This document shows, one piece after another, positions 34,146 through 44,943 of a DNA stretch of 64,000 nt (position 1 is the first letter of the stretch; each line of letters opens with the position of its first letter). The notes below the pieces were generated by a model, which worked only from the letters and a program-made list of their open reading frames with translations, had not been told where the DNA came from and ran no database searches. The position numbers were made by a program, and so were the translations under genes. Source of the DNA: Ignavibacteriota bacterium (GTDB taxonomy: Bacteria; Bacteroidota; Ignavibacteria; UBA10030; SZUA-254). Location of the stretch: the NCBI GenBank assembly GCA_016212665.1, contig JACREZ010000033.1:7533-71532 (forward strand). The letters run 5' to 3'.

Positions 34146-34291
34146 AGATTTATTCTTTGACGTTCATTTCACAAAATCATAATGAAACTGGAAACAGAAA
34201 ACAGGTAACTGGAAACTAAAGATTGTTGGGAACATTTATTATCTTCTGTCTGTTAGCCTGTTGTCATTTTATCAACTATCAGAGTTCTTTT

Positions 34292-35245
34292 ATGTTAATC
34301 AAACATACCGATGACATCAAGTCATCAGAAATTACACCCGAACAACTTTATCTTAACAGAAGAAAATTTATTGCTTCTGCTTCTGCGGCAACCGTTGGAT
34401 TGGTCGCCGGTACAATCCTCCCATCTTCAATAGCACTTGCTAAACCCGGCGACGACTTCAAACCAAAAAATCCGAGCAAGTACAACACGACCGAAGAATT
34501 GACTCCCTACAAAGATGTTACCACGTACAACAATTTTTATGAGTTCGGAGTTGATAAGGAAAACCCTTCCGAGAATGCACACACCCTTAAACCAAAACCG
34601 TGGACTGTTTCTGTCGAAGGCGAAGTGAAAAAGCCGGCAAAGTATAATCTTGAAGACTTGATGAAAGGATTGACATTAGAAGACAGAATCTATCGGTTGC
34701 GTTGTGTCGAAGCGTGGTCAATGATAATTCCTTGGCTTGGTTTTCCTTTGCGTGATTTGATAAAGCGGTTGGAGCCAACTTCAAAAGCAAAGTACGTAGC
34801 ATTTGAAACATTGTACGCTCCCGAACAAATGCCCGGACAAAATCGAAGCGTTCTCAAGTGGCCCTACGTTGAAGGACTCCGCATGGATGAAGCAATGAAT
34901 CCATTGACAATTCTTGCAACAGGTTTGTACGGGAAGCAACTTCCGAATCAAAATGGCGCGCCATTGCGACTTGTCGTTCCTTGGAAATACGGATTTAAAA
35001 GCATCAAATCAATTGTGAAGATTAAATTTGTTGAATCTCAGCCACCAACATCGTGGAACATTTCAGCGCCAAGTGAATACGGCTTTTACTCGAACGTTAA
35101 TCCGGAAGTTGACCATCCGCGATGGAGTCAGTCGAAGGAACGACGTATTGGAGAATTTTTCAAACAAAAAACTCTCATGTTCAATGGATACGCTGACCAA
35201 GTTGCAAGCATGTACAGCGGAATGGATTTGAAGAAAAATTTCTGA
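34292..35245 (+). CDS. msrP: protein-methionine-sulfoxide reductase catalytic subunit MsrP (YedY-like molybdoenzyme)
   Basis: The track ORF starts at 34223. The ATG at 34292 gives MLIKH...[18 protein letters not shown] (Tat-like signal). ...YNNFYEFG...[19 protein letters not shown]...[14 protein letters not shown]. Confidence 0.9.
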
Positions 35246-35260
35246 TTGCTGAATTTGAAA

Positions 35261-35875
35261 ATGAATCAAAGACAAACTATAAAGTGGATTGCCAAACCAC
35301 TTCTTTTCCTTTCATCGTTACTGCCTGTTGCGATTTTAACGTGGCAGTTTTTGAATGATGAACTCAGTGCAAATCCGATTGACGACATTACCGATGCAAC
35401 CGGGACATGGACGTTGCGGTTCCTGTGCATTACGCTTGCTGTTACTCCGTTGAAGAAAATCTCAGGCTGGAATTGGGTTGGACAATTCCGACGGATGCTT
35501 GGGTTGTTTGCGTTCTTTTATGCTTCTCTTCATTTCACAACGTACATTTACTTAGACCAATTCTTCGAATGGGAATCCATAGTAGTTGACGTAGCCAAGC
35601 GACCGTTCATTACCGTTGGATTTGCAAGTTTTCTTCTCCTCATTCCCCTTGCTGTAACTTCATTTAATAAAATGATACAATGGCTCGGCGGTAAGCGATG
35701 GAAATGGCTTCACCGCCTCGTGTATCTCATCGCAATCGGCGGAGTTATTCATTATCTCTGGCTCGTGAAAGCAGATACACAAAGACCACTGACGTATGGA
35801 GTTATCGTACTTGTTCTGCTTTCCATTCGCTTGTACTTCTATCTAAAACAAAAATTCACTTTGAACAAAAGCTAA
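35261..35875 (+). CDS. msrQ: MsrQ (YedZ-like) heme-binding membrane subunit
   Basis: ATG at 35261 (the track uses a TTG at 35246). Ferric-reductase-like TM protein. ...GTWTLRFLCITLAVTPL...LHFTTY...WLHRLVYLIAIGGVIHYLW. Confidence 0.85.
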   Translation: MNQRQTIKWIAKPLLFLSSLLPVAILTWQFLNDELSANPIDDITDATGTWTLRFLCITLAVTPLKKISGWNWVGQFRRMLGLFAFFYASLHFTTYIYLDQFFEWESIVVDVAKRPFITVGFASFLLLIPLAVTSFNKMIQWLGGKRWKWLHRLVYLIAIGGVIHYLWLVKADTQRPLTYGVIVLVLLSIRLYFYLKQKFTLNKS

Positions 35876-35975
35876 TAGTGGTTACAGGTTACTGGTTTGT
35901 GGTTTGAGTTTTTTGATTTCGAGTTTCATATTATGTCCAGTGAGAATATGTAACCTAAAACTAAAACTTCAATGA

Positions 35976-35995
35976 CTCAATCGTAAATCGTCAAT
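35976..35995. repeat. right arm of the 20-bp perfect inverted repeat flanking msrPQ
   Basis: TCAATCGTAAATCGTCAATC. Confidence 0.9.
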
Positions 35996-36060
35996 CTGGT
36001 TTTATTTGCCTTCAATTCAACTCTTAACTATATTCACCCGAAATAAAAACAATCGGGTGA

Positions 36061-37080
36061 ATGAGTTTCAATCCTTCACATATTAAATCGCTATTGCTTC
36101 GTGTGCTTGAACATCGTTCGACACATCGCGAGTTGACGGAGTTTATCAATCTCTGCCATAACATGGCTGTCGCATATTTACGAATGAAAAAGACAAACGG
36201 GAAATTCAATGCGGAAAATGTAGGATTGACAATTGAAGATTTTGCTTTCGATTCAATAGCAGAGTTGTTCAAATATTCTGATGCAGGATTCCCTGAACTA
36301 ACTACCTATTTCGAGAATTTCACTCCTCTGGAGTCCGCGTCCGCCGATGAAATTCAGAACGCCCTCCGTTGTCTCATCTTCAGCAACGTTAATCATAGAA
36401 TTTATCGCTCGTATCGTGAACACGATTCATCGCTCGGTCGCATCATCCGAAATATCAAAGAATATCTTACTGAACACTCTTCACTGAAGATAAAAGATAA
36501 ATCGGGTGAAAAATATATTTGTAGCAAGGAATGTAAAACAGGATTCTCTCCCGTTACTCCGGAACTGTTCTCCATTCAGTTTTGGGGACGACTTCCTGAA
36601 CAAACTTCACTGAACAACATGCTATCAGTGATAGCAGAAATTCTTTCTGAACAACCGGAACACCAAAAGATAATTCCGTTAGTTGAAGTTGCGTTGTTGA
36701 TTCGCTCAGTCTATTCAAGCAAACATACAGGGACTTCATGCTGTGAACAATCTCTTTTCACTCAAGAAGAGTTGAAACTATTTATCAATGAATCGCTCCA
36801 ACAAACCAAACAATTTCTCCACATATCATATGTTCAGAAAGGTAAACTTACACGAGATGATGCGGCAATTTTCTATCAGACAATCTCCGATATTTTAGAC
36901 CATGAATTCCTCACGTTCGAACAAGACGGGCTATCATACTTTTCAATAATGAAGAGTCATAGTCCAACGTTAACTCAGGAATTGTATAACCAACATCATC
37001 GCGTAATTATTGAATATGTTGCAAAACAGGCAAAAAACGACTTACGCGAGCGATTGAAACGTGAATTGGGGTTTCTGTGA
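36061..37080 (+). CDS. hypothetical protein with a possible divergent sigma-70 region-2-like N-terminus
   Basis: 339 aa. DFAFDSIAELFK and ALRCLIFSNVNHRIYRSYRE loosely resemble sigma regions 2.1 and 2.2-2.4. I see no clear region-4 HTH. Confidence 0.3.
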   Translation: MSFNPSHIKSLLLRVLEHRSTHRELTEFINLCHNMAVAYLRMKKTNGKFNAENVGLTIEDFAFDSIAELFKYSDAGFPELTTYFENFTPLESASADEIQNALRCLIFSNVNHRIYRSYREHDSSLGRIIRNIKEYLTEHSSLKIKDKSGEKYICSKECKTGFSPVTPELFSIQFWGRLPEQTSLNNMLSVIAEILSEQPEHQKIIPLVEVALLIRSVYSSKHTGTSCCEQSLFTQEELKLFINESLQQTKQFLHISYVQKGKLTRDDAAIFYQTISDILDHEFLTFEQDGLSYFSIMKSHSPTLTQELYNQHHRVIIEYVAKQAKNDLRERLKRELGFL

Positions 37081-37201
37081 ACCATCGAAAATGGAACGAT
37101 ATTATCAATGCAAAAGGAAAAATTCAAAATGAAAATAAATATCAGTTATCTGTTAAATTCGTACAAATGACTAATGACAATTGACCAATGATGATTAACA
37201 A

Positions 37202-38020
37202 ATGACAGAAAACCATTTAACAGAACTCGAACTTGACCGGCTTGCCCGTGATTCTGCTCGTCTTAATGAGAGCGAGAAGAATCATCTTGATTTGTGTAAT
37301 AGTTGCAAAGAGAAATTAAAGTTCTTACAACAATATTATTCGACACTTGAAGGTGAAATGGTAAAACCAATCTCGGAACGAGTTGAAACGCTTTCACGAA
37401 AGATAACACGCTCAAACATCATTGAGTTAAGTTTGTACCAACCTCAAATTGATTTGAACAAACTGACCGGAACGGATAACACGATTGTCCTTGCCGCACA
37501 GCATGTAGCAGAAGAAACAGGTCGGTTTGTTACTGTTGCTACGTTTGCCTCAGAACCTTCGAAAACATTGGTTCGAATTGTCAAAGATAGATTCGAGCAA
37601 CAGTATCGCTTCCATGTTCTTGCGGAAAATCCACTTCTCAGTCAGTTGGTGTTGCTTGGAATTGTAGATGAATCAGGTCGTTCGTTCTTTCTCCCAACAA
37701 ATAAGCAAGGGGTCTCATCCTTCCCGTCTCTGGAAATAATCGAATGGAAACGTTCGGGTGTTACGCTCCATCTCCCTTCAGCTATCCTTACTGTGGAAGA
37801 TGATAAGGAATATATCACAGACGGAAACTTTTCCTTACTATTACATCCGGAACCGGACACGTTCAAAGCAACAATTACATCAACTACGAACGAACACATC
37901 CGTTACGCGCTTATTCTTTTCGATGATGAATCAACCTTAGTGAAAGAAGTGCATTCTCATCAAATCGCCATTCCGCTGACTGCGAATCAAACAATTACAG
38001 AAATCCGGTTGTTCAGTTGA
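37202..38020 (+). CDS. zinc-finger (HxxxCxxC, ZAS-type) anti-sigma-like protein, no TM helix
   Basis: 272 aa. H28-x3-C32-x2-C35 (HLDLCNSC, nt 37283-37306) near the N-terminus, as in zf-HC2 anti-sigma factors. The remainder looks beta-rich and soluble. Confidence 0.5.
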   Translation: MTENHLTELELDRLARDSARLNESEKNHLDLCNSCKEKLKFLQQYYSTLEGEMVKPISERVETLSRKITRSNIIELSLYQPQIDLNKLTGTDNTIVLAAQHVAEETGRFVTVATFASEPSKTLVRIVKDRFEQQYRFHVLAENPLLSQLVLLGIVDESGRSFFLPTNKQGVSSFPSLEIIEWKRSGVTLHLPSAILTVEDDKEYITDGNFSLLLHPEPDTFKATITSTTNEHIRYALILFDDESTLVKEVHSHQIAIPLTANQTITEIRLFS

Positions 38021-38190
38021 GGTTCGTTATCTGTTATCCGTTAGTTGTTATTCGTGAGTGGTTAGTGGTGATTGGTGAGTAGTTTGCACGACCTCCTAAA
38101 ATCTCTACGCGCTTCAATCGGATGGATAATCCAAGATTGGATAATTCGCTCTATGAGCCGTAGGCAATTGGCAATTCGCAATTCGAAATT

Positions 38191-40470
38191 ATGAATGACC
38201 CGTTAACAATAGAAAACAGATTTCAGACTCTCAAGCAATCTCTCCCGCTTCTTTCAAGCAAGAGAATGAAGTTGCTGGAGATTCTTGAGTTTATTGAGCA
38301 GTTTTCGTCAGAAGATGCCACACACTATCTTATCGCCTATCTTCCTGAGTTGTTATCTGAAATTACCACATCAATTCTTCAGACAGATTTTACCGGAACA
38401 AACCCTGAGTTTCTTTTTCGATTGAAGAATCTGCTTGATGTTTCTTCGAAGGTCTTAAGACAAGATAAGAATGAAGAACTGTCAAGAGCGCTTGAGCATC
38501 TCAAACAGGAAGAAGAAAAATTTGCATCGTGGCAACACCAACAAACAAACGGCTTGTTTTCCACAACCAAACCCAAATCTTTTTCGACGGATAAAGTTTG
38601 GATTCCTATGGTTGAGCATGAGCCAATCCTCACTGAACTTCCTCCGGAATTTGCAACACTTTCTCAACTACGGGTTGATGTTTCGTTCAGTCCAAAACCC
38701 ATTCAGCAAGATGAATTACACGTAACACAATTTGCAGAAAACAATAAGAACAACCATCAGGAACTCCGCTCTGCATTAATTGCGGCGAAGGATTTCTTTG
38801 AACGGGTAACGCACATTAAAATCAAGCGGAAGTTGATTGTACGATGTACTTTTGAACATGCAAATCTCATCATCGGCGAATCGTTGTGTGCAGGACTTGC
38901 CGCAGTTATCTTCACCGACTTGCTTCGACTTCACCAATACAAAGAAGAATTCAGCATCCGTCCCGATGTTGCCATCACCGGAGCGCTCGATTCTTCTGGT
39001 AAACTCCTCCCTGTTGATTCCAATGGATTGAAGTTGAAGGTTGAAGCGTGTCTTTTCTCTCCGATTAGATTTCTTGTCGTCCCCAAGCAACAATGCAAAA
39101 TTAAAAATGAAAAATTTCCCGCAGAGCGGGATGCCGCAAGGCGGCAAAAAAATGAATACCTCGAACCGTCAACCGTTAACCACCTACAACCTACCACCTA
39201 TGACCTAAAACCTTTTGAAATCGTAGGCATCGAGAACTTCTCCGAACTCTTCTTCAACCGCCGCCTCACTGACTCCCGCCGAATCCCTCTTGCAAAACAA
39301 GCAGGGCGCAAACTCTGGAAACACCGTTTACCGATTGCGGCAACGATTATTGTTCTGTTACTTTTAGTGATTTGGAAGATTTTGTATGGACCGATGGATA
39401 TGAATCCGGTGAGCGCATCATTTGCAGGCGAAATGATGACATTGAAAAATAGAATGGGTGAGTCCGTTGATGTAATGCAAATTGGGTCGGAATCTGTTAA
39501 TCATCAGTTACACAACCCTCGTATTTTATCCTTTTTGGATATTAACAAAGATGCTATCAACGAAGTATTCTGGATAGAGTATCAGGAAAATACCGGACTT
39601 CAAACGGCAGTTATTAAATGTAAAGATATTTCAACAAATGAAATTCTCTGGACTTCTTTGTTAAAAAAATATTTTCATTTTCCGAAAAAGCCGGAAACGA
39701 AAGATGATAACTTCATAGCTGGAAACCTTGAAATTGGTGATTTTGATAATAACGGAACTCCGGAAATTATTTTGAAAGGTGGTTCTCCTTACTTTCATCA
39801 AATTATTGTCAAACTCGATGCGTCAACGGGAGAGGAGATAGGATGCTATCTCCACATTGGCGGAGTCGGTGAGATAAAAATGATCGATTTGGAAAATGAT
39901 GGTATAACTGAAATTATTGTTCCATGTATTGACCAACCACTACGTTCAGCAAGTATTTTTATTCTTGACCCTCGTTTCATTACCGGTCATTCTCCTACGC
40001 AAGGAGATTATATTACAGAAGGAGTAAAACCGGGGTTAGAACGAACCTATATAAATATTCCAAAAACCATCGTTGGGGAGGCGTTCAAATATCAAATAAA
40101 ATATTCTCTGTGTTTCATTGAAGACATACAGAAAAAAGATAAGCAGTTCAAAGTTAATGTACACGATGTAAACGGTTCAATCGGAAATCGCGAATATTAT
40201 AATATCTACACATACTTTAATTTCGACCTTTCTCCTGCCTTCGTCACTACAGGTGACCCGTTCGATATGTTAGCAGAAAGTCTTTTTGTCAATAAACGAA
40301 TCAACCGATTACCAGATTATGAGTACTTCAATGAGTGGATGAAAACCATAAAATACTGGGATGGCTATCAGTGGGGCAACACACCGACCGTTAACAAACG
40401 CTGGCTCCAAGCATTGAAGGAACGGGGTTTACCAATACCTCCGGGGATTCCGGATTCACTCTTACACTAA
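38191..40470 (+). CDS. membrane protein: helical N-domain, ATPase-less Lon (S16)-like protease domain, one TM helix, FG-GAP-like extracytoplasmic domain
   Basis: 759 aa. GESLCAGLAAVIF...RPDVAITGALDSSGKLLPVDSNGLKLKVEA...IRFLVVPKQQ aligns with Lon GPSAG...DVAMTGEITLRGxVLPIGGLKEKLLAA...VLIPxxN. Candidate dyad Ser231 (nt 38881) and Lys283. TM helix LPIAATIIVLLLLVIWKILYG (about nt 39328-39390). DxNxDG loops GDFDNNGTPEII and DLENDGITEIIV. Confidence 0.6.
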   Translation: MNDPLTIENRFQTLKQSLPLLSSKRMKLLEILEFIEQFSSEDATHYLIAYLPELLSEITTSILQTDFTGTNPEFLFRLKNLLDVSSKVLRQDKNEELSRALEHLKQEEEKFASWQHQQTNGLFSTTKPKSFSTDKVWIPMVEHEPILTELPPEFATLSQLRVDVSFSPKPIQQDELHVTQFAENNKNNHQELRSALIAAKDFFERVTHIKIKRKLIVRCTFEHANLIIGESLCAGLAAVIFTDLLRLHQYKEEFSIRPDVAITGALDSSGKLLPVDSNGLKLKVEACLFSPIRFLVVPKQQCKIKNEKFPAERDAARRQKNEYLEPSTVNHLQPTTYDLKPFEIVGIENFSELFFNRRLTDSRRIPLAKQAGRKLWKHRLPIAATIIVLLLLVIWKILYGPMDMNPVSASFAGEMMTLKNRMGESVDVMQIGSESVNHQLHNPRILSFLDINKDAINEVFWIEYQENTGLQTAVIKCKDISTNEILWTSLLKKYFHFPKKPETKDDNFIAGNLEIGDFDNNGTPEIILKGGSPYFHQIIVKLDASTGEEIGCYLHIGGVGEIKMIDLENDGITEIIVPCIDQPLRSASIFILDPRFITGHSPTQGDYITEGVKPGLERTYINIPKTIVGEAFKYQIKYSLCFIEDIQKKDKQFKVNVHDVNGSIGNREYYNIYTYFNFDLSPAFVTTGDPFDMLAESLFVNKRINRLPDYEYFNEWMKTIKYWDGYQWGNTPTVNKRWLQALKERGLPIPPGIPDSLLH

Positions 40471-40784
40471 CCTTACGCCTGCCTGCCGAAGGCATGGAAG
40501 GTTTTTCATTTATCCTAACCTTCGCAAGGTTATTCCCTTCAAACGAGAGACTTAAGGACCTCTTTGGAACCACGCTTAATACTCTTCGTTCCCTTCGTGG
40601 TTAATTTTCTGCAACCCTTCCAATCTGTGACGATATATATTTCAGTAAAGAGTAATCAGTAATCAGAACATTTACCCGTCTCTACTGATGTAATGATAAA
40701 ATCTTCAATCCCTACGGATTGTAGACATAAATCGTCGATTGTAAATCATAGTTCATATTCATAATCATATAAAGGAAAAACCTT

Positions 40785-41255
40785 ATGCCATACTCAAATA
40801 TATCAGCAGAACTTCCGGATGCAGATCGCGATGCAGCCATCGATGCATTAAAATCTGCCCGAGCAAAATTACCATTTCTTATCAATCTCACCGCCGAAGA
40901 GCGAGGAACAATGCTCAAGATGGGAGATAAATCCGTTTCGTTTGTGTCGAAATCGCTCGACTATTGCAAAGCGAACCCGAACCTCTCACCTCCATATCTC
41001 GATGCAACCGAGTTGCAAAAAGATGTTGTGCTCACGCAACAACTTTCACCCATTATGCAGGAACTTGCCTCACTGTTCGAAGCAGTGAGTGATACCTACA
41101 TGGCAGTCGGGAGCGAAGCATTTACTTCAGCACTCGTATTCTATAATTCGGTCAAAGCCGCATCCAAATCGAACGTCACCGGAATTACCTCAATTTACGA
41201 TGACCTTAAAACCCGGTTCCCGGGTCGCCCACCAAAATCCGGACCGACACCGTAG
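40785..41255 (+). CDS. hypothetical protein
   Basis: 156 aa with a plausible SD-like AAAGGAAAAA upstream. No family recognised. Confidence 0.5.
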   Translation: MPYSNISAELPDADRDAAIDALKSARAKLPFLINLTAEERGTMLKMGDKSVSFVSKSLDYCKANPNLSPPYLDATELQKDVVLTQQLSPIMQELASLFEAVSDTYMAVGSEAFTSALVFYNSVKAASKSNVTGITSIYDDLKTRFPGRPPKSGPTP

Positions 41256-41414
41256 TTGGTTATTTGGTGAATAGTGATGGGTTAATTTGTTAATTGGTGA
41301 GTCGTGATTGGTGAGTATAAGTGTCGTTCTGAGAACTATTCACTAATTGACTAATCACCGATTAACTATGCACCATTTAACCAGTCACGAATTAACCAAT
41401 AACCATCCTTTTAC

Positions 41415-41753: not shown

Positions 41754-43859
41754 ATGTTAAAAACAATAATTGCTTTTTTCTTAATTACAATGTTTTCTCT
41801 AAATAATACTTTTAGTCAAAAAAACTACGATAGAAAATTTCATTCTTACAATGTCGATACTTCTCTTTTTCAAAATAAGTTTGACTTCCCAACAACATAT
41901 ACAACATACGGAATTGCATCTGCAGATTTAAATTCCGATGGACTAATAGACATAGTAACAACAAGTTATGCAGGGGATAAAATCACCGTGTATCAGAATA
42001 TTGGAATAAGTGATTCAATTGCCTTCAAAAAACTCGATGTCGTCTCACTTAATGCGCCACAGCATCTAACTATTGGTGACATAGATAATGATTACAAACC
42101 TGATTTGGTTGTTGTCTCAGGTGCAAATGTAAAATTAGAAGTATACCGTAATAATAGTAGCGTTAATCATATATCATTTGAACCAGCAATAGAAATTGTA
42201 AATGCTGTGAATCCAAATTTCTTATCACTTGCCGATTTGAATCATGATCATACTTTAGAAATAATTTCACCCAGTAATAATGTAAATATGGTTTATGTTT
42301 ATCGAAACATCAGTACGCCAGGAAACATTCTCTTTGATGATATTTTTTCATTTCCGACTGAAGGTTCACCAAATGGAATTTCTGTCGGTGATATAAATAA
42401 TGATAGCCTAATTGATATTGCAGTCCCGAGCAAAGCAAAGGGAATCGTTTCGGTGTTAGAAAACAATACGTCTACTTCAGAAATTCAATTTTACCCAATG
42501 ATAAATTTTCCGGTAGGAACTGGACCTGAATATGTAGTAATTAAAGACTTAAATATCGACGGGAAAAATGATCTAACAGTTCTAAATACCAATGGCGGTT
42601 TCGGTAATACGTTATCAGTACTGAAGAATATTAACTTCAACGAACATATTGACGCGTCCTCATTCTCAACCCATATTGATTTCACAACAGACTTAGGACC
42701 TGTTTACTTAAATATTAACGATTTGGATAATGATAATTATCCAGAGTTAATAGTATCCAATATATTGGGAGCGAGTATATCTGTTTTGAAAAACAACTCA
42801 TCTTTAGAAGATCTCATCTTTGGTGAAAGGGTTAACTTTGATATCTTGCCAGTGCCTTATTACTTTTCCCTCAATGATTTTGACAATGATTTTGATTTAG
42901 ATATAGCAGTTACAACACAACATGAGCCTGCCTTTTCTATATTGATTAACAATTCAGATTTCATTCCAGCACCTGTCTTACAATGTCCTAACGACATAGT
43001 GGTGTATACTGGCGTTGATAGTAATGTAGCAATTGCATTCTATACACCCTCCGTGCTCAATACTTCAGCTACAGACATTTCTTGTTTTCCTCCGTCAGGT
43101 AGTTTGTTTCCTATTGGCATTTCACAAGTGAGGTGTTATGCATCCAATGAAAGCGGAACTGATAGTTGTTCATTTTATGTAACTGTAATTGATTCTCAAA
43201 AACCGAAGATAACTCTAACCTGTACCCCTCAATTTTTATGGCCACCTAATCATAAAATGCGACAAATAGATGTAAGTATATCAGCGAGTGATAATTCACA
43301 AAATTTCTCGGTTTTACTTCTCTCAGTTACAAGCGATGAAGCAGATAATGGTACTGGGAATGGAGATAAGGTTAACGATATTCAACAAGTCAGCACTGGT
43401 AGCCTTGATACCTCTTTCCTTTTGAGAGCTGAAAGAGCAGGCAATGGAAATGGAAGAAATTATTCTGTCACATATTCTGCTATTGATAATAGTGGAAACC
43501 AAATTTTCAAAACTATTTTAATTTCTGTTCCTCACAGTCTTAGTAAAGAAACGATTTTATCTGAAAATATTTATCCAGAATATTTCTTTTTACAACAAAA
43601 CTTCCCCAACCCTTTTAACCCGTCAACTTCCATCAGTTATGCGTTACCAGCACGCAGCCATGTTAAGTTGAGTGTATTCAACTCGCTTGGTCAGCAGGTT
43701 GCCGAGTTGGTGAACAGAGAGCAAGATGCAAATTATTATGAAGTGAAATGGGAAGCGACAACTCCGTCCGGTCTCTACCTCTACCGCCTCGACGCCGTCA
43801 GCACGGACGACCCGACGAACACGTTCAGTCAGGTAAGGAAGATGTTACTCCTTCGTTAA
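41754..43859 (+). CDS. secreted FG-GAP/VCBS-repeat protein with HYR domain and T9SS C-terminal sorting domain
   Basis: The ATG at 41754 gives the signal peptide MLKTIIAFFLITMFSLNNTFSQ (the track ORF starts at 41610 inside the repeat array). Seven DxNxDG-type loops. HYR-like LQCPNDIVVY...CYASNESGTDSCSFYVTV. LWPPNHKM domain. C-terminal NFPNPFNPSTSISYALP...LYLYRL. Confidence 0.85.
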   Translation: MLKTIIAFFLITMFSLNNTFSQKNYDRKFHSYNVDTSLFQNKFDFPTTYTTYGIASADLNSDGLIDIVTTSYAGDKITVYQNIGISDSIAFKKLDVVSLNAPQHLTIGDIDNDYKPDLVVVSGANVKLEVYRNNSSVNHISFEPAIEIVNAVNPNFLSLADLNHDHTLEIISPSNNVNMVYVYRNISTPGNILFDDIFSFPTEGSPNGISVGDINNDSLIDIAVPSKAKGIVSVLENNTSTSEIQFYPMINFPVGTGPEYVVIKDLNIDGKNDLTVLNTNGGFGNTLSVLKNINFNEHIDASSFSTHIDFTTDLGPVYLNINDLDNDNYPELIVSNILGASISVLKNNSSLEDLIFGERVNFDILPVPYYFSLNDFDNDFDLDIAVTTQHEPAFSILINNSDFIPAPVLQCPNDIVVYTGVDSNVAIAFYTPSVLNTSATDISCFPPSGSLFPIGISQVRCYASNESGTDSCSFYVTVIDSQKPKITLTCTPQFLWPPNHKMRQIDVSISASDNSQNFSVLLLSVTSDEADNGTGNGDKVNDIQQVSTGSLDTSFLLRAERAGNGNGRNYSVTYSAIDNSGNQIFKTILISVPHSLSKETILSENIYPEYFFLQQNFPNPFNPSTSISYALPARSHVKLSVFNSLGQQVAELVNREQDANYYEVKWEATTPSGLYLYRLDAVSTDDPTNTFSQVRKMLLLR

Positions 43860-44067: not shown

Positions 44068-44943
44068 TTATTGCTTCTTCAAAAGTGCAAGTTCATCCCG
44101 TCGTATATTCAGCAACTCATGAATTTCAGTTGCACGGAGTTCATCTAACTTCACATGCAAGCTTTGAATCTGCATTTCTGCCTTCCTGTTGACCTGATAA
44201 TCGAGTTCTGCTTTGATACGGTCTTTCTTCGATTGCCGGTTCTGGCTCATTAATATTATCGGCGCCTGAATTGCCGAAACGGTGGAAAGCATCAGGTTCA
44301 GAAATGTAAACGGAAACGAATCGAACGGCTGAAAAAGAAGTTGAATCGTGTTGAGAAGTATCCAACTGAAAAAAAACGTGAGAAAAGATATGATAAATTT
44401 CCAACTACCGATGACCCGCGCAATAATATCGGAGAAACGGTCGGAGAGATGCGATTGATGCTCGATTTCTTCGTTGACATTCTTTGACGCAGAACGTTCC
44501 ATCATTTCGTTTGTTGCGCGAAGTCGCTCGGAAATTTCGTGAAGCATCGTCAAACAAACTTGAGGGCGGGAAAGAAGAAACTCGTTGAAATCTTTCCGGT
44601 TCATTTCCAGCAGGGATGTTCGTTTCAACGCTTTCGCATTTGCGCTTCGGGGCGCATCGCCAAACAAGGCAAGTTCTCCGAAGAAATCCCCTTCTCCGAA
44701 CACGGAAAGAATTGTTTGCTGATTATTCTCCGTCCAAAGAGTTACGGCAATTTCCCCCTCTTTAATAATAAACATGGAATTTCCCGGGTCCCCTTTCTTG
44801 AAGAGAAGTTGTCCCTCCTCTTTTGTCAGCGGCTTCCAGAGCGATTTTAATTGATGAAGGTCTGCCTCGCCAAGCGAAGAAAAAATAGAAATCTTTGAGA
44901 GAAAGTTTTGGTCAATCATAGTTGATGAAATTAATTCTCTCAA
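44068..44943 (-). CDS. cyclic-nucleotide-binding domain protein fused to a DUF1003 membrane domain
   Basis: 291 aa. cNMP motif FGEGDFFGELALFGDAPRSANAKA, then the two-TM DUF1003-like IGSWKFIISFLTFFFSWILLN...PFTFLNLMLS. Confidence 0.8.
   Translation of the reverse strand: MRELISSTMIDQNFLSKISIFSSLGEADLHQLKSLWKPLTKEEGQLLFKKGDPGNSMFIIKEGEIAVTLWTENNQQTILSVFGEGDFFGELALFGDAPRSANAKALKRTSLLEMNRKDFNEFLLSRPQVCLTMLHEISERLRATNEMMERSASKNVNEEIEHQSHLSDRFSDIIARVIGSWKFIISFLTFFFSWILLNTIQLLFQPFDSFPFTFLNLMLSTVSAIQAPIILMSQNRQSKKDRIKAELDYQVNRKAEMQIQSLHVKLDELRATEIHELLNIRRDELALLKKQ

Follow-up and report, generated by a model that had tools for sequence, protein, structure and literature searches.

Three adjacent genes on one strand, one of them joining a Lon-like protease domain without an ATPase to a membrane helix and a sensor-like domain, raise the question of what such a protease could do beside two small soluble proteins. 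The genes, here called gene 1, gene 2 and gene 3, are consecutive open reading frames (ORFs) in a stretch of 64,000 nucleotides (nt) of contig JACREZ010000033.1 from an Ignavibacteriota bacterium (assembly GCA_016212665.1), to which we refer as the window. An earlier note on this DNA had proposed a transmembrane relay, in which gene 3 senses a signal outside the cell and cleaves a zinc-motif, anti-sigma-like protein (gene 2) in the cytoplasm, so that a sigma-like factor (gene 1) is released. Following up this proposal, we favour the reading that the three genes form an operon encoding a transmembrane proteolytic signalling switch, with a probability of about 0.5. The Lon fold with its Ser-Lys dyad, the topology and the synteny of the relay were supported, to which our analysis adds fused relatives and an invariant LAA tripeptide in gene 2. 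Its sigma factor did not gain such support, and the cleavage of gene 2 is what we infer from these pieces.

A Lon-type protease domain without an ATPase

Gene 3 carries a genuine S16 (Lon) proteolytic fold and does so without the ATPase module. The motifs GES(231)LCAG, DVAITG, KLLPV, GLKLK(283)VEA and LVVPKQQ, from which a Lon-like segment with a positioned Ser-Lys pair had been proposed for residues 190-320, are all present, and their alignment with Lon was found to be correct by structure comparison with Foldseek as well as by profile alignment. For the AlphaFold2 (AF2) model of gene 3, with a predicted local distance difference test score (pLDDT) of 71.5, each of the top 50 PDB matches was a Lon proteolytic domain (E 2e-9 to 7e-7). 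The best of them reached a target-normalised TM-score of 0.78 against the P-domain of E. coli Lon (3wu6_A), and full-length Lon structures aligned with the model over 320-350 columns. At the sequence level, a profile built from 79 diverse gene 3 members with 20-40% pairwise identity matched the proteolytic domain of A. fulgidus LonB at E 1.2e-9, placing S231 on the serine of 'GDSAS' and K283 (in K-x-E-A) on the lysine of 'QKIEAA'. A profile of 12 close homologs was too shallow for significance (E 0.03-0.1 against Lon), and the single sequence retrieved Lon entries of the PDB at E 0.1-1. The Pfam model Lon_C (PF05362) covered only residues 254-302, with 19.1 bits against a cut-off of 21.1 (E 1e-3), and the NCBIfam models lon and lonB gave 11-16 bits against cut-offs above 500. 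Since the Pfam score is below threshold but the deep profile matches at E 1.2e-9, gene 3 is best placed as a divergent member of the S16 superfamily that lies outside the curated Lon_C model.

Throughout the 79 relatives, G229, S231 and K283 are the sole invariant residues of the cytoplasmic N-terminal half, and they are also retained in every gene 3 paralog checked. The invariance of the Ser-Lys pair argues for a catalytically active enzyme and against a mere scaffold. Walker A (GxxxxGK[ST]) and Walker B (hhhhD[DE]) motifs are absent from the whole of gene 3, as the earlier note had reported, and a Walker-A-like string in one of the 79 relatives was judged to be due to chance. The five-helix domain that precedes the protease domain is kept throughout the family, with F34 and Y50 near-invariant. 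In view of the 320-350 columns aligned with full-length Lon, we considered that this bundle might derive from a remnant AAA+ lid; by analogy with the N-terminal domain of the SAVED-Lon protease CalpL, which is introduced below, residues 1-119 may be a substrate docking site.

The single transmembrane helix and the FG-GAP-type loops that had been pointed out in gene 3 were confirmed, and the proposed orientation of the protein was supported by its charge bias. Seven lysine or arginine residues precede the helix, against 0-2 on its other side, according to the length of sequence counted; relatives typically have 5-8 before and 1-3 after, and the bias is seen in nearly all of the 79. No N-terminal signal peptide was seen in gene 3. 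By the positive-inside rule, the protease domain would be cytoplasmic and residues 400-759 would lie outside.

This outer domain is, judging from model and profile, an FG-GAP-like beta-propeller. It is all-beta in the AF2 model, with pLDDT values of 80-90, and the family profile matched propellers in the PDB, namely CRTAC1 (E 2e-8) and YesW (E 2e-5) and also YesX and PL11. The Pfam model FG-GAP_3 scored 20.4 bits, under its cut-off. A loop of the calcium-binding type Dx[DN]x[DN]G is found as DFDNNG at residue 517, DLENDG is present at residue 566, and the outer domains of relatives touch lambda-carrageenase and RGL11 propeller models.

The family is large, numbering at least 293 clusters. An exhaustive hidden Markov model (HMM) search with the N-terminal 375 residues of gene 3 gave that many cluster representatives at E<=1e-10 and 635 at the looser threshold of E<=1e-3, nearly all of 700-800 amino acids (aa), and a protein database search with gene 3 gave 11 relatives, all from metagenome-assembled genomes of Ignavibacteriae/Bacteroidota. 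Named sources include Ignavibacteriae/Ignavibacteriales, Melioribacter, Chitinophagales, other Bacteroidota and Balneola, and every family member is annotated as 'hypothetical protein'.

A conserved gene order and fused relatives

Genes 1, 2 and 3 are co-conserved in 11 independent loci. The same order (~340, ~250-300 and ~750 aa) was found in the window and in loci that we number L001, L003, L005, L006, L007, L008, L009, L012, L017 and L031. Gene 3 identity among these loci goes down to about 22% and their flanks are unrelated, containing glnA, gidAB, PEPCK, resistance-nodulation-division (RND) efflux genes, HSP20 and others, so that the co-conservation on which the proposed relay depends holds in distant genomes. 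Homologs of gene 1 always stand directly 5' of gene-2-like genes.

Five further loci (L018, L019, L021, L022 and L023) encode one protein made of the first ~60 residues of gene 2, a transmembrane helix and the outer domain of gene 3. These fused proteins have ~490 aa (863 aa in L019), their outer domains match at E 1e-31 to 1e-79, and the one of L023 includes the HxxxCxxC motif. A gene 1 homolog lies directly 5' of the fused gene in L021, L022 and L023, that is, wherever upstream DNA is present. By analogy, this is the textbook layout of a sigma factor followed by its membrane anti-sigma factor, from which it follows that the N-terminal domain of gene 2 very probably binds gene 1 and serves as its binding domain. 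Read as a Rosetta-stone fusion, the same proteins predict that gene 2 and gene 3 act together. Compared with these relatives, the version in the window looks like a classical system in which the anti-sigma domain has been detached and a Lon-like protease has taken its place.

The same evidence bears on whether gene 3 has a substrate other than gene 2, either in self-processing or in quality control of membrane or secreted proteins, with genes 1 and 2 as accessories, or whether its Lon-like domain is a binding scaffold. For this alternative it can be said that Lon P-domains are proteases of a general kind, that RadA and ComM have Lon-like domains with no proteolytic activity, and that in two loci on short contigs (L010 and L011) a gene 3 homolog does not have genes 1 and 2 directly upstream of it. 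A scaffold is hard to reconcile with the absolute invariance of the Ser-Lys pair, and the sister systems, in which the gene 2 domain is fused to the gene 3 sensor, lead one to expect that the two proteins are directly linked in function. In addition, a Lon domain without its ATPase cannot unfold substrates, which suits a site-specific cut in a linker as made by CalpL or, in the absence of ATP-powered unfolding, by the Lon-like enzyme LonC (PMC3391209). We regard this alternative, in either form, as rather improbable and retain gene 2 as the candidate substrate of gene 3.

Two variants of the locus were seen in addition. Tandem gene 3 paralogs follow a single gene 1-gene 2 pair in L009 (1925-4168 and 4161-6368) and in L031 (8001-10247 and 10291-12537), the genomes concerned including a 3.4-Mb Balneola contig, and GxS...K is kept in both copies, which suggests hetero-oligomers or two sensors with one output. 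The 863-aa anti-sigma-like protein of L019 (1-2589) has two tandem outer domains of the gene 3 type (E 3e-45 and 9e-33).

Gene 2 and its invariant tripeptide

The earlier note had described gene 2 as carrying the zinc motif of ZAS anti-sigma factors while having no transmembrane segment, and both statements hold: the motif is found as H28-x3-C32-x2-C35, and gene 2 has no predicted transmembrane helix (maximum KD19 1.47). H5 and the H28xxxC32xxC35 motif in the N-terminal domain are invariant in 8/8 closer homologs of gene 2, and the zinc ligands are also kept in L006, L008, L013 and L017. We take the spacing of H5 and HxxxCxxC to be like that of ChrR-type ZAS domains. Pfam zf-HC2 (PF13490) gave weak matches below its cut-off in one homolog (E 0.005) and in the fused L023 protein (E 0.009). 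The assignment of gene 2 as a soluble anti-sigma-type protein is supported by the motif and by the fusion variant.

The most conserved feature of the gene 2 family is the tripeptide L97-A98-A99, which is present in 15/15 homologs, including the branch without zinc ligands, and which stands after an indel-rich linker in the family alignment. By analogy with the degrons discussed below, LAA is a candidate cleavage site and C-degron.

Scans of gene 2 against Pfam, NCBIfam and PADLOC gave noise only, and PDB sequence and profile matches of genes 1 and 2 (to TCTP and to the tetratricopeptide repeats of kinesin light chain) were dismissed as spurious.

A proposed switch and its precedents

Combining these observations, we propose the following sequence of events. 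Gene 3 would be a single-pass protein with its propeller facing the periplasm or cell surface and its helical and Lon-like domains in the cytoplasm, where the zinc-motif domain of gene 2 would keep gene 1, a divergent sigma-like or other transcription factor, inactive in a complex. A signal from outside, perhaps a glycan or envelope ligand, would activate the protease, possibly by oligomerisation as in CalpL, and the protease would then cut gene 2 in or next to its linker at the invariant LAA. The N-terminal fragment of gene 2 would end in a C-terminal LAA degron like those of ssrA, RseA and CalpT, and its clearance by housekeeping proteases such as ClpXP would set gene 1 free. The substrate, the cleavage site, the mode of activation, the function of gene 1 and the target genes are the inferred parts of this scheme.

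The closest mechanistic precedent is the CalpL/CalpT/CalpS system, which belongs to type III CRISPR. Its SAVED-Lon protease, CalpL, begins with a helical domain and has a Ser-Lys dyad. CalpL filaments, formed in response to cyclic tetra-adenylate (cA4), cut the soluble anti-sigma factor CalpT to expose the C-degron ...LQLAA204, upon which the fragment is removed by cellular proteases and CalpS, a sigma factor resembling those of the extracytoplasmic function (ECF) type, is released (bioRxiv 10.1101/2024.05.08.593097; PMC11229360). The degron of RseA is VAA (cited in bioRxiv 10.1101/2024.05.08.593097). Both systems are three-gene modules with an ATP-independent Lon-type protease that has N-terminal helices and is fused to a sensor; CalpT is soluble and gains an LAA degron on cleavage, and gene 2 is predicted to be soluble and has an invariant LAA. 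They differ in the sensor, which in CalpL is a cytoplasmic cA4-binding SAVED domain and in gene 3 a transmembrane helix with a predicted extracytoplasmic propeller; Pfam found no SAVED domain in gene 3, and cas genes are absent from the 12 neighbourhoods examined. They differ also in the output, gene 1 (339 aa) being much longer than an ECF sigma factor and not recognisable as one. Genes 1 and 2 are likened to CalpS and CalpT by description only. That gene 3 might be an ortholog of CalpL was rejected, as it has no SAVED domain and CalpL was not among its PDB sequence matches or top 50 fold matches.

Other known systems share parts of the design. With LonA, LonB and LonC (MEROPS S16), gene 3 has in common the P-domain fold and the Ser-Lys motifs, its best sequence match being the archaeal membrane-bound LonB, but unlike LonA and LonB it has no AAA+ module, its transmembrane helix is C-terminal to the protease instead of inside the ATPase, and a large extracytoplasmic domain has been added. 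The RseA-sigmaE (DegS/RseP/ClpXP), RsiW-SigW and ChrR-type ZAS systems show an N-terminal H...HxxxCxxC domain, a sensor outside the membrane and a degron ending in AA as predicted here, and the sister two-gene systems L021-L023 have the layout of ZAS/ECF pairs, with a partner gene followed by anti-sigma domain, transmembrane helix and sensor. In the window, by contrast, the anti-sigma-like domain is off the membrane sensor and a Lon-like protease stands in its stead, which would make site-1 and site-2 proteases dispensable, and gene 1, as the partner protein, cannot be recognised as an ECF sigma factor. Craspase (TPR-CHAT) with Csx30 and CASP-sigma, and the SAVED-CHAT cascades, follow the same logic of protease, inhibitor and sigma factor (bioRxiv 10.1101/2023.06.23.546230), but with a caspase-like CHAT protease, with activation by RNA or cyclic oligoadenylate, and in the cytoplasm.

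The earlier note had added that its author knew of no description of this architecture, and our literature search found no description of this three-gene architecture either. This stands for the transmembrane version, whereas the concept has a precedent in CalpL/CalpT/CalpS (PMC11229360). What is new here is thus best classed as the version of the protease/anti-sigma/sigma triad that is transmembrane and has an extracytoplasmic sensor.

If the proposal is right, a single sensor-protease polypeptide that cuts a soluble inhibitor would constitute a fourth route from the membrane to transcription, beside two-component systems, the regulated intramembrane proteolysis of anti-sigma factors and TonB-dependent surface signalling. 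The logic of CalpL, in which a Lon protease cuts an anti-sigma factor and creates an LAA degron, would be a general module reused with different sensors and no peculiarity of CRISPR systems. Several hundred clusters of 'hypothetical proteins' would receive a function in Ignavibacteriota, Bacteroidota and Balneolales, groups with an important part in turning over polysaccharides in sediments, groundwater and the oceans, and gene 1 could represent a new class of RNA-polymerase-directing factors that current sigma models miss. A more far-reaching version, which is possible though on the whole doubtful, would make this a widespread pathway of the Fibrobacteres-Chlorobi-Bacteroidetes (FCB) superphylum: a propeller would gate a Lon-like protease across the membrane, the anti-sigma factor would be cut at LAA to yield a ClpXP-type degron, a divergent sigma-like family would be freed, and neighbouring surface genes for glycan-related or type IX secretion system (T9SS) proteins would come under control. 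The system would then be a non-CRISPR relative of CalpLTS that evolved when the anti-sigma domain of a membrane anti-sigma factor was swapped for a protease.

Gene 1 and the points against the switch

Several observations speak against the switch that we favour, and its weak point is gene 1. The weak resemblance to sigma-70 region 2 that had been noted for gene 1 was not reproduced by any sequence method. Pfam found nothing in 12 gene 1 homologs, and no sigma family came up even at E<=10. In hhalign comparisons, the gene 1 family reached a probability of 0.1-1.7% against ECF and group 1-3 profiles built from E. coli K-12 rpoE, fecI, fliA, rpoH, rpoS and rpoD, whereas the positive control, ECF against groups 1-3, reached 94.5%. 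Matches to sigma factors in structure searches did not go beyond E 0.11, and of the five AF2 models of gene 1 four were poor. With regard to gene 2, the anti-sigma models of Pfam, including zf-HC2, gave no match to the protein of the window; the Balneola-type branch (L007, L009 and L031) no longer has the zinc ligands; and LAA could belong to the structure of the gene 2 C-terminal domain, as part of its first strand, and be no cleavage site at all. To these are added L010 and L011, with gene 3 homologs that lack genes 1 and 2 directly upstream, and the finding that the Lon-like domain of gene 3 is no closer to CalpL than to LonB, CalpL being missing from the PDB sequence matches and from the top 50 fold matches.

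What speaks for a sigma-like gene 1 comes from its best AF2 model, which has a pLDDT of 79.5 and consists of three helical blocks; the input was a 5-sequence alignment, which limits the quality of the models. Foldseek placed sigmaS (5ipl_F) at rank 1 in the PDB (E 0.11, probability 0.77) and a phage sigma factor at rank 1 in BFVD (E 0.11, probability 0.72). Both alignments span the full length, yet have TM-scores of about 0.3, and the remaining matches stay at or below a probability of 0.2, bar one unnamed BFVD protein at 0.75. As the case for a sigma identity is built on context and on this weak structural signal, the identity is unproven, and a highly divergent sigma-like factor is a possible reading of the model.

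The same data allow for a protease switch as proposed in which gene 1 is an effector other than a sigma factor, for example a helical protein that arrests growth or regulates an enzyme, with gene 2 as an antitoxin-like inhibitor. Such an effector would fit the lack of likeness between gene 1 and sigma factors or any Pfam, NCBIfam or PDB entry at the sequence level, the modest E value of the structural match, and the arrest of E. coli growth by the CalpS-type outputs described so far. It is at odds with the HxxxCxxC domain and the transmembrane sensor directly 3' of the partner gene, which are a hallmark of sigma/anti-sigma pairs, and with the observation that in two fold libraries a probability above 0.7 was reached only by the rank-1 sigma factors and the one unnamed BFVD protein. 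We consider a non-sigma effector unlikely and continue to treat gene 1 as a candidate sigma-like output of the switch. Searches with gene 1 in NCBIfam, PADLOC and PDB sequences gave no genuine match, and no bona fide sigma factors were found in the window and related loci.

Layout of the locus

The positions of the features are collected in Table 1. The three ORFs and the lengths of the two gaps between them are exactly as first described. GC content is ordinary, and the intergenic gaps are filled with degenerate repeats of a 7-nt period (window positions 35950-36000, 37163-37207, 38026-38084, 38164-38190, 40642-40666 and 41334-41405), with units in the spacers such as ACAAATG, GTTAGTG, GCAATTC, TCAGTAA and AATCGTC/AATCGTA. 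Elsewhere genes 2 and 3 touch or sit a few nt apart, unlike in the window. A scan of the region found no terminator-like site in either spacer. Because the spacers hold repeats and no terminator-like hairpin, co-transcription of genes 1, 2 and 3 is likely. The scan for sigma-70-type promoters and terminators in the region stayed at background level, and inspection by eye showed no common promoter motif 5' of gene 1 across distant loci. The sequence upstream of gene 1, including a AATCGTCAATCGTAAATC-type repeat, is shared by the window and L012 alone.

An RNA hairpin at the start of gene 1 may control its translation. Its predicted stability is -17.5 kcal/mol (z -5.96), which none of 200 shuffled sequences attained, and it is kept in the 82%-identical locus L012 (about 2142-2182), where one C-G pair is replaced by U-G. 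In L012 the start assigned by NCBI to the gene 1 ortholog (P0014) lies 13 codons further downstream.

Table 1. Positions of the three genes, their domains and associated features in the window
Feature	Position	Strand	Description
RNA hairpin	36026..36067	+	Gene 1 AUG sequestered in the 3' arm
Gene 1	36061..37080	+	339 aa, soluble all-helical protein, candidate sigma-like output factor
Spacer, genes 1-2	37081..37201	+	121 nt, degenerate heptamer repeats
Gene 2	37202..38020	+	272 aa, soluble; ZAS-like domain ~1-60, linker, C-terminal domain without assigned fold
Zinc-type motif, gene 2	37283..37306	+	H28-x3-C32-x2-C35; upstream ligand candidate H5 at 37214-37216
LAA tripeptide, gene 2	37490..37498	+	L97-A98-A99, candidate cleavage site/C-degron
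Spacer, genes 2-3	38021..38190	+	170 nt, degenerate heptamer repeats
Gene 3	38191..40470	+	759 aa, membrane protein
Five-helix domain, gene 3	38191..38547	+	N-terminal, residues 1-119; AF2 secondary structure
Lon-like (S16) proteolytic domain, gene 3	38593..39270	+	~residues 135-360; Foldseek, profile against PDB
Candidate catalytic codons, gene 3	S231 38881-38883; K283 39037-39039	+	Aligned to the Lon dyad
Transmembrane helix, gene 3	39328..39387	+	~residues 380-399, predicted N-in/C-out; KD19 2.64
FG-GAP/VCBS-like beta-propeller, gene 3	39388..40470	+	Residues 400-759, predicted extracytoplasmic; putative sensor
T9SS-secreted FG-GAP/HYR protein	41754..43859 (ORF from 41610)	+	Pfam FG-GAP_3, HYR, Por_Secre_tail

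Neighbouring genes

Surface or secreted proteins are recurrent neighbours 3' of the module. The T9SS-secreted FG-GAP/HYR protein that had been recognised downstream of gene 3 was confirmed with Pfam, and Por_Secre_tail/T9SS-like genes lie within ~8 kb 3' of the module at nine loci (the window, L001, L007, L010, L012, L013, L018, L021 and L031), a raw count of genes that are common in these phyla. Tentatively, the downstream T9SS cargo and surface genes may be regulon targets of the switch.

The neighbourhoods also bear on the idea that the module is a defence against phages or envelope damage, a surface-sensing analogue of CalpLTS with abortive growth arrest as its output. CalpL/T/S and Craspase/Csx30/CASP-sigma, its nearest mechanistic precedents, are defence systems, and genes of the toxin-antitoxin or defence-island type directly 3' of the module in L003 and L005 give a faint hint in this direction. 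None of the three module proteins matches PADLOC, however; cas and CRISPR genes are missing from the 12 neighbourhoods; many loci are set among housekeeping genes (glnA, gidAB, PEPCK, msrPQ-like) and beside T9SS cargo; and the family has a stable place in one superphylum, without a patchy distribution. We regard a role in defence as a long shot and prefer the signalling switch.

The genes directly 3' of the triad in L003 (10585-12876) and L005 (10610-14198) are HicA/HicB, ParE/antitoxin, nucleotidyltransferase, DUF4160/DUF2442 and AAA_14/DUF4143 genes. In the Balneola locus L031 (12711-18065), the module is followed immediately by a gene for a 1784-aa protein with multiple BACON domains and by a T9SS cargo gene. 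Directly 5' of the module in the window are two genes (34223-35875, + strand) that by eye resemble MsrP/MsrQ, the first a periplasmic molybdopterin oxidoreductase and the second the haem protein that partners it in the membrane; other loci have not conserved this putative pair beside the module. Between gene 3 and the T9SS-secreted protein lies an ORF of 156 aa (40785-41255, + strand), which had no match in Pfam, NCBIfam or PADLOC and a marginal one in L012 (E 1.6e-4). Further downstream, a gene on the opposite strand (44068-44943, - strand) encodes a cyclic-nucleotide-binding domain together with a DUF1003 membrane domain in one fused protein (Pfam E 1e-24 and 3e-36).

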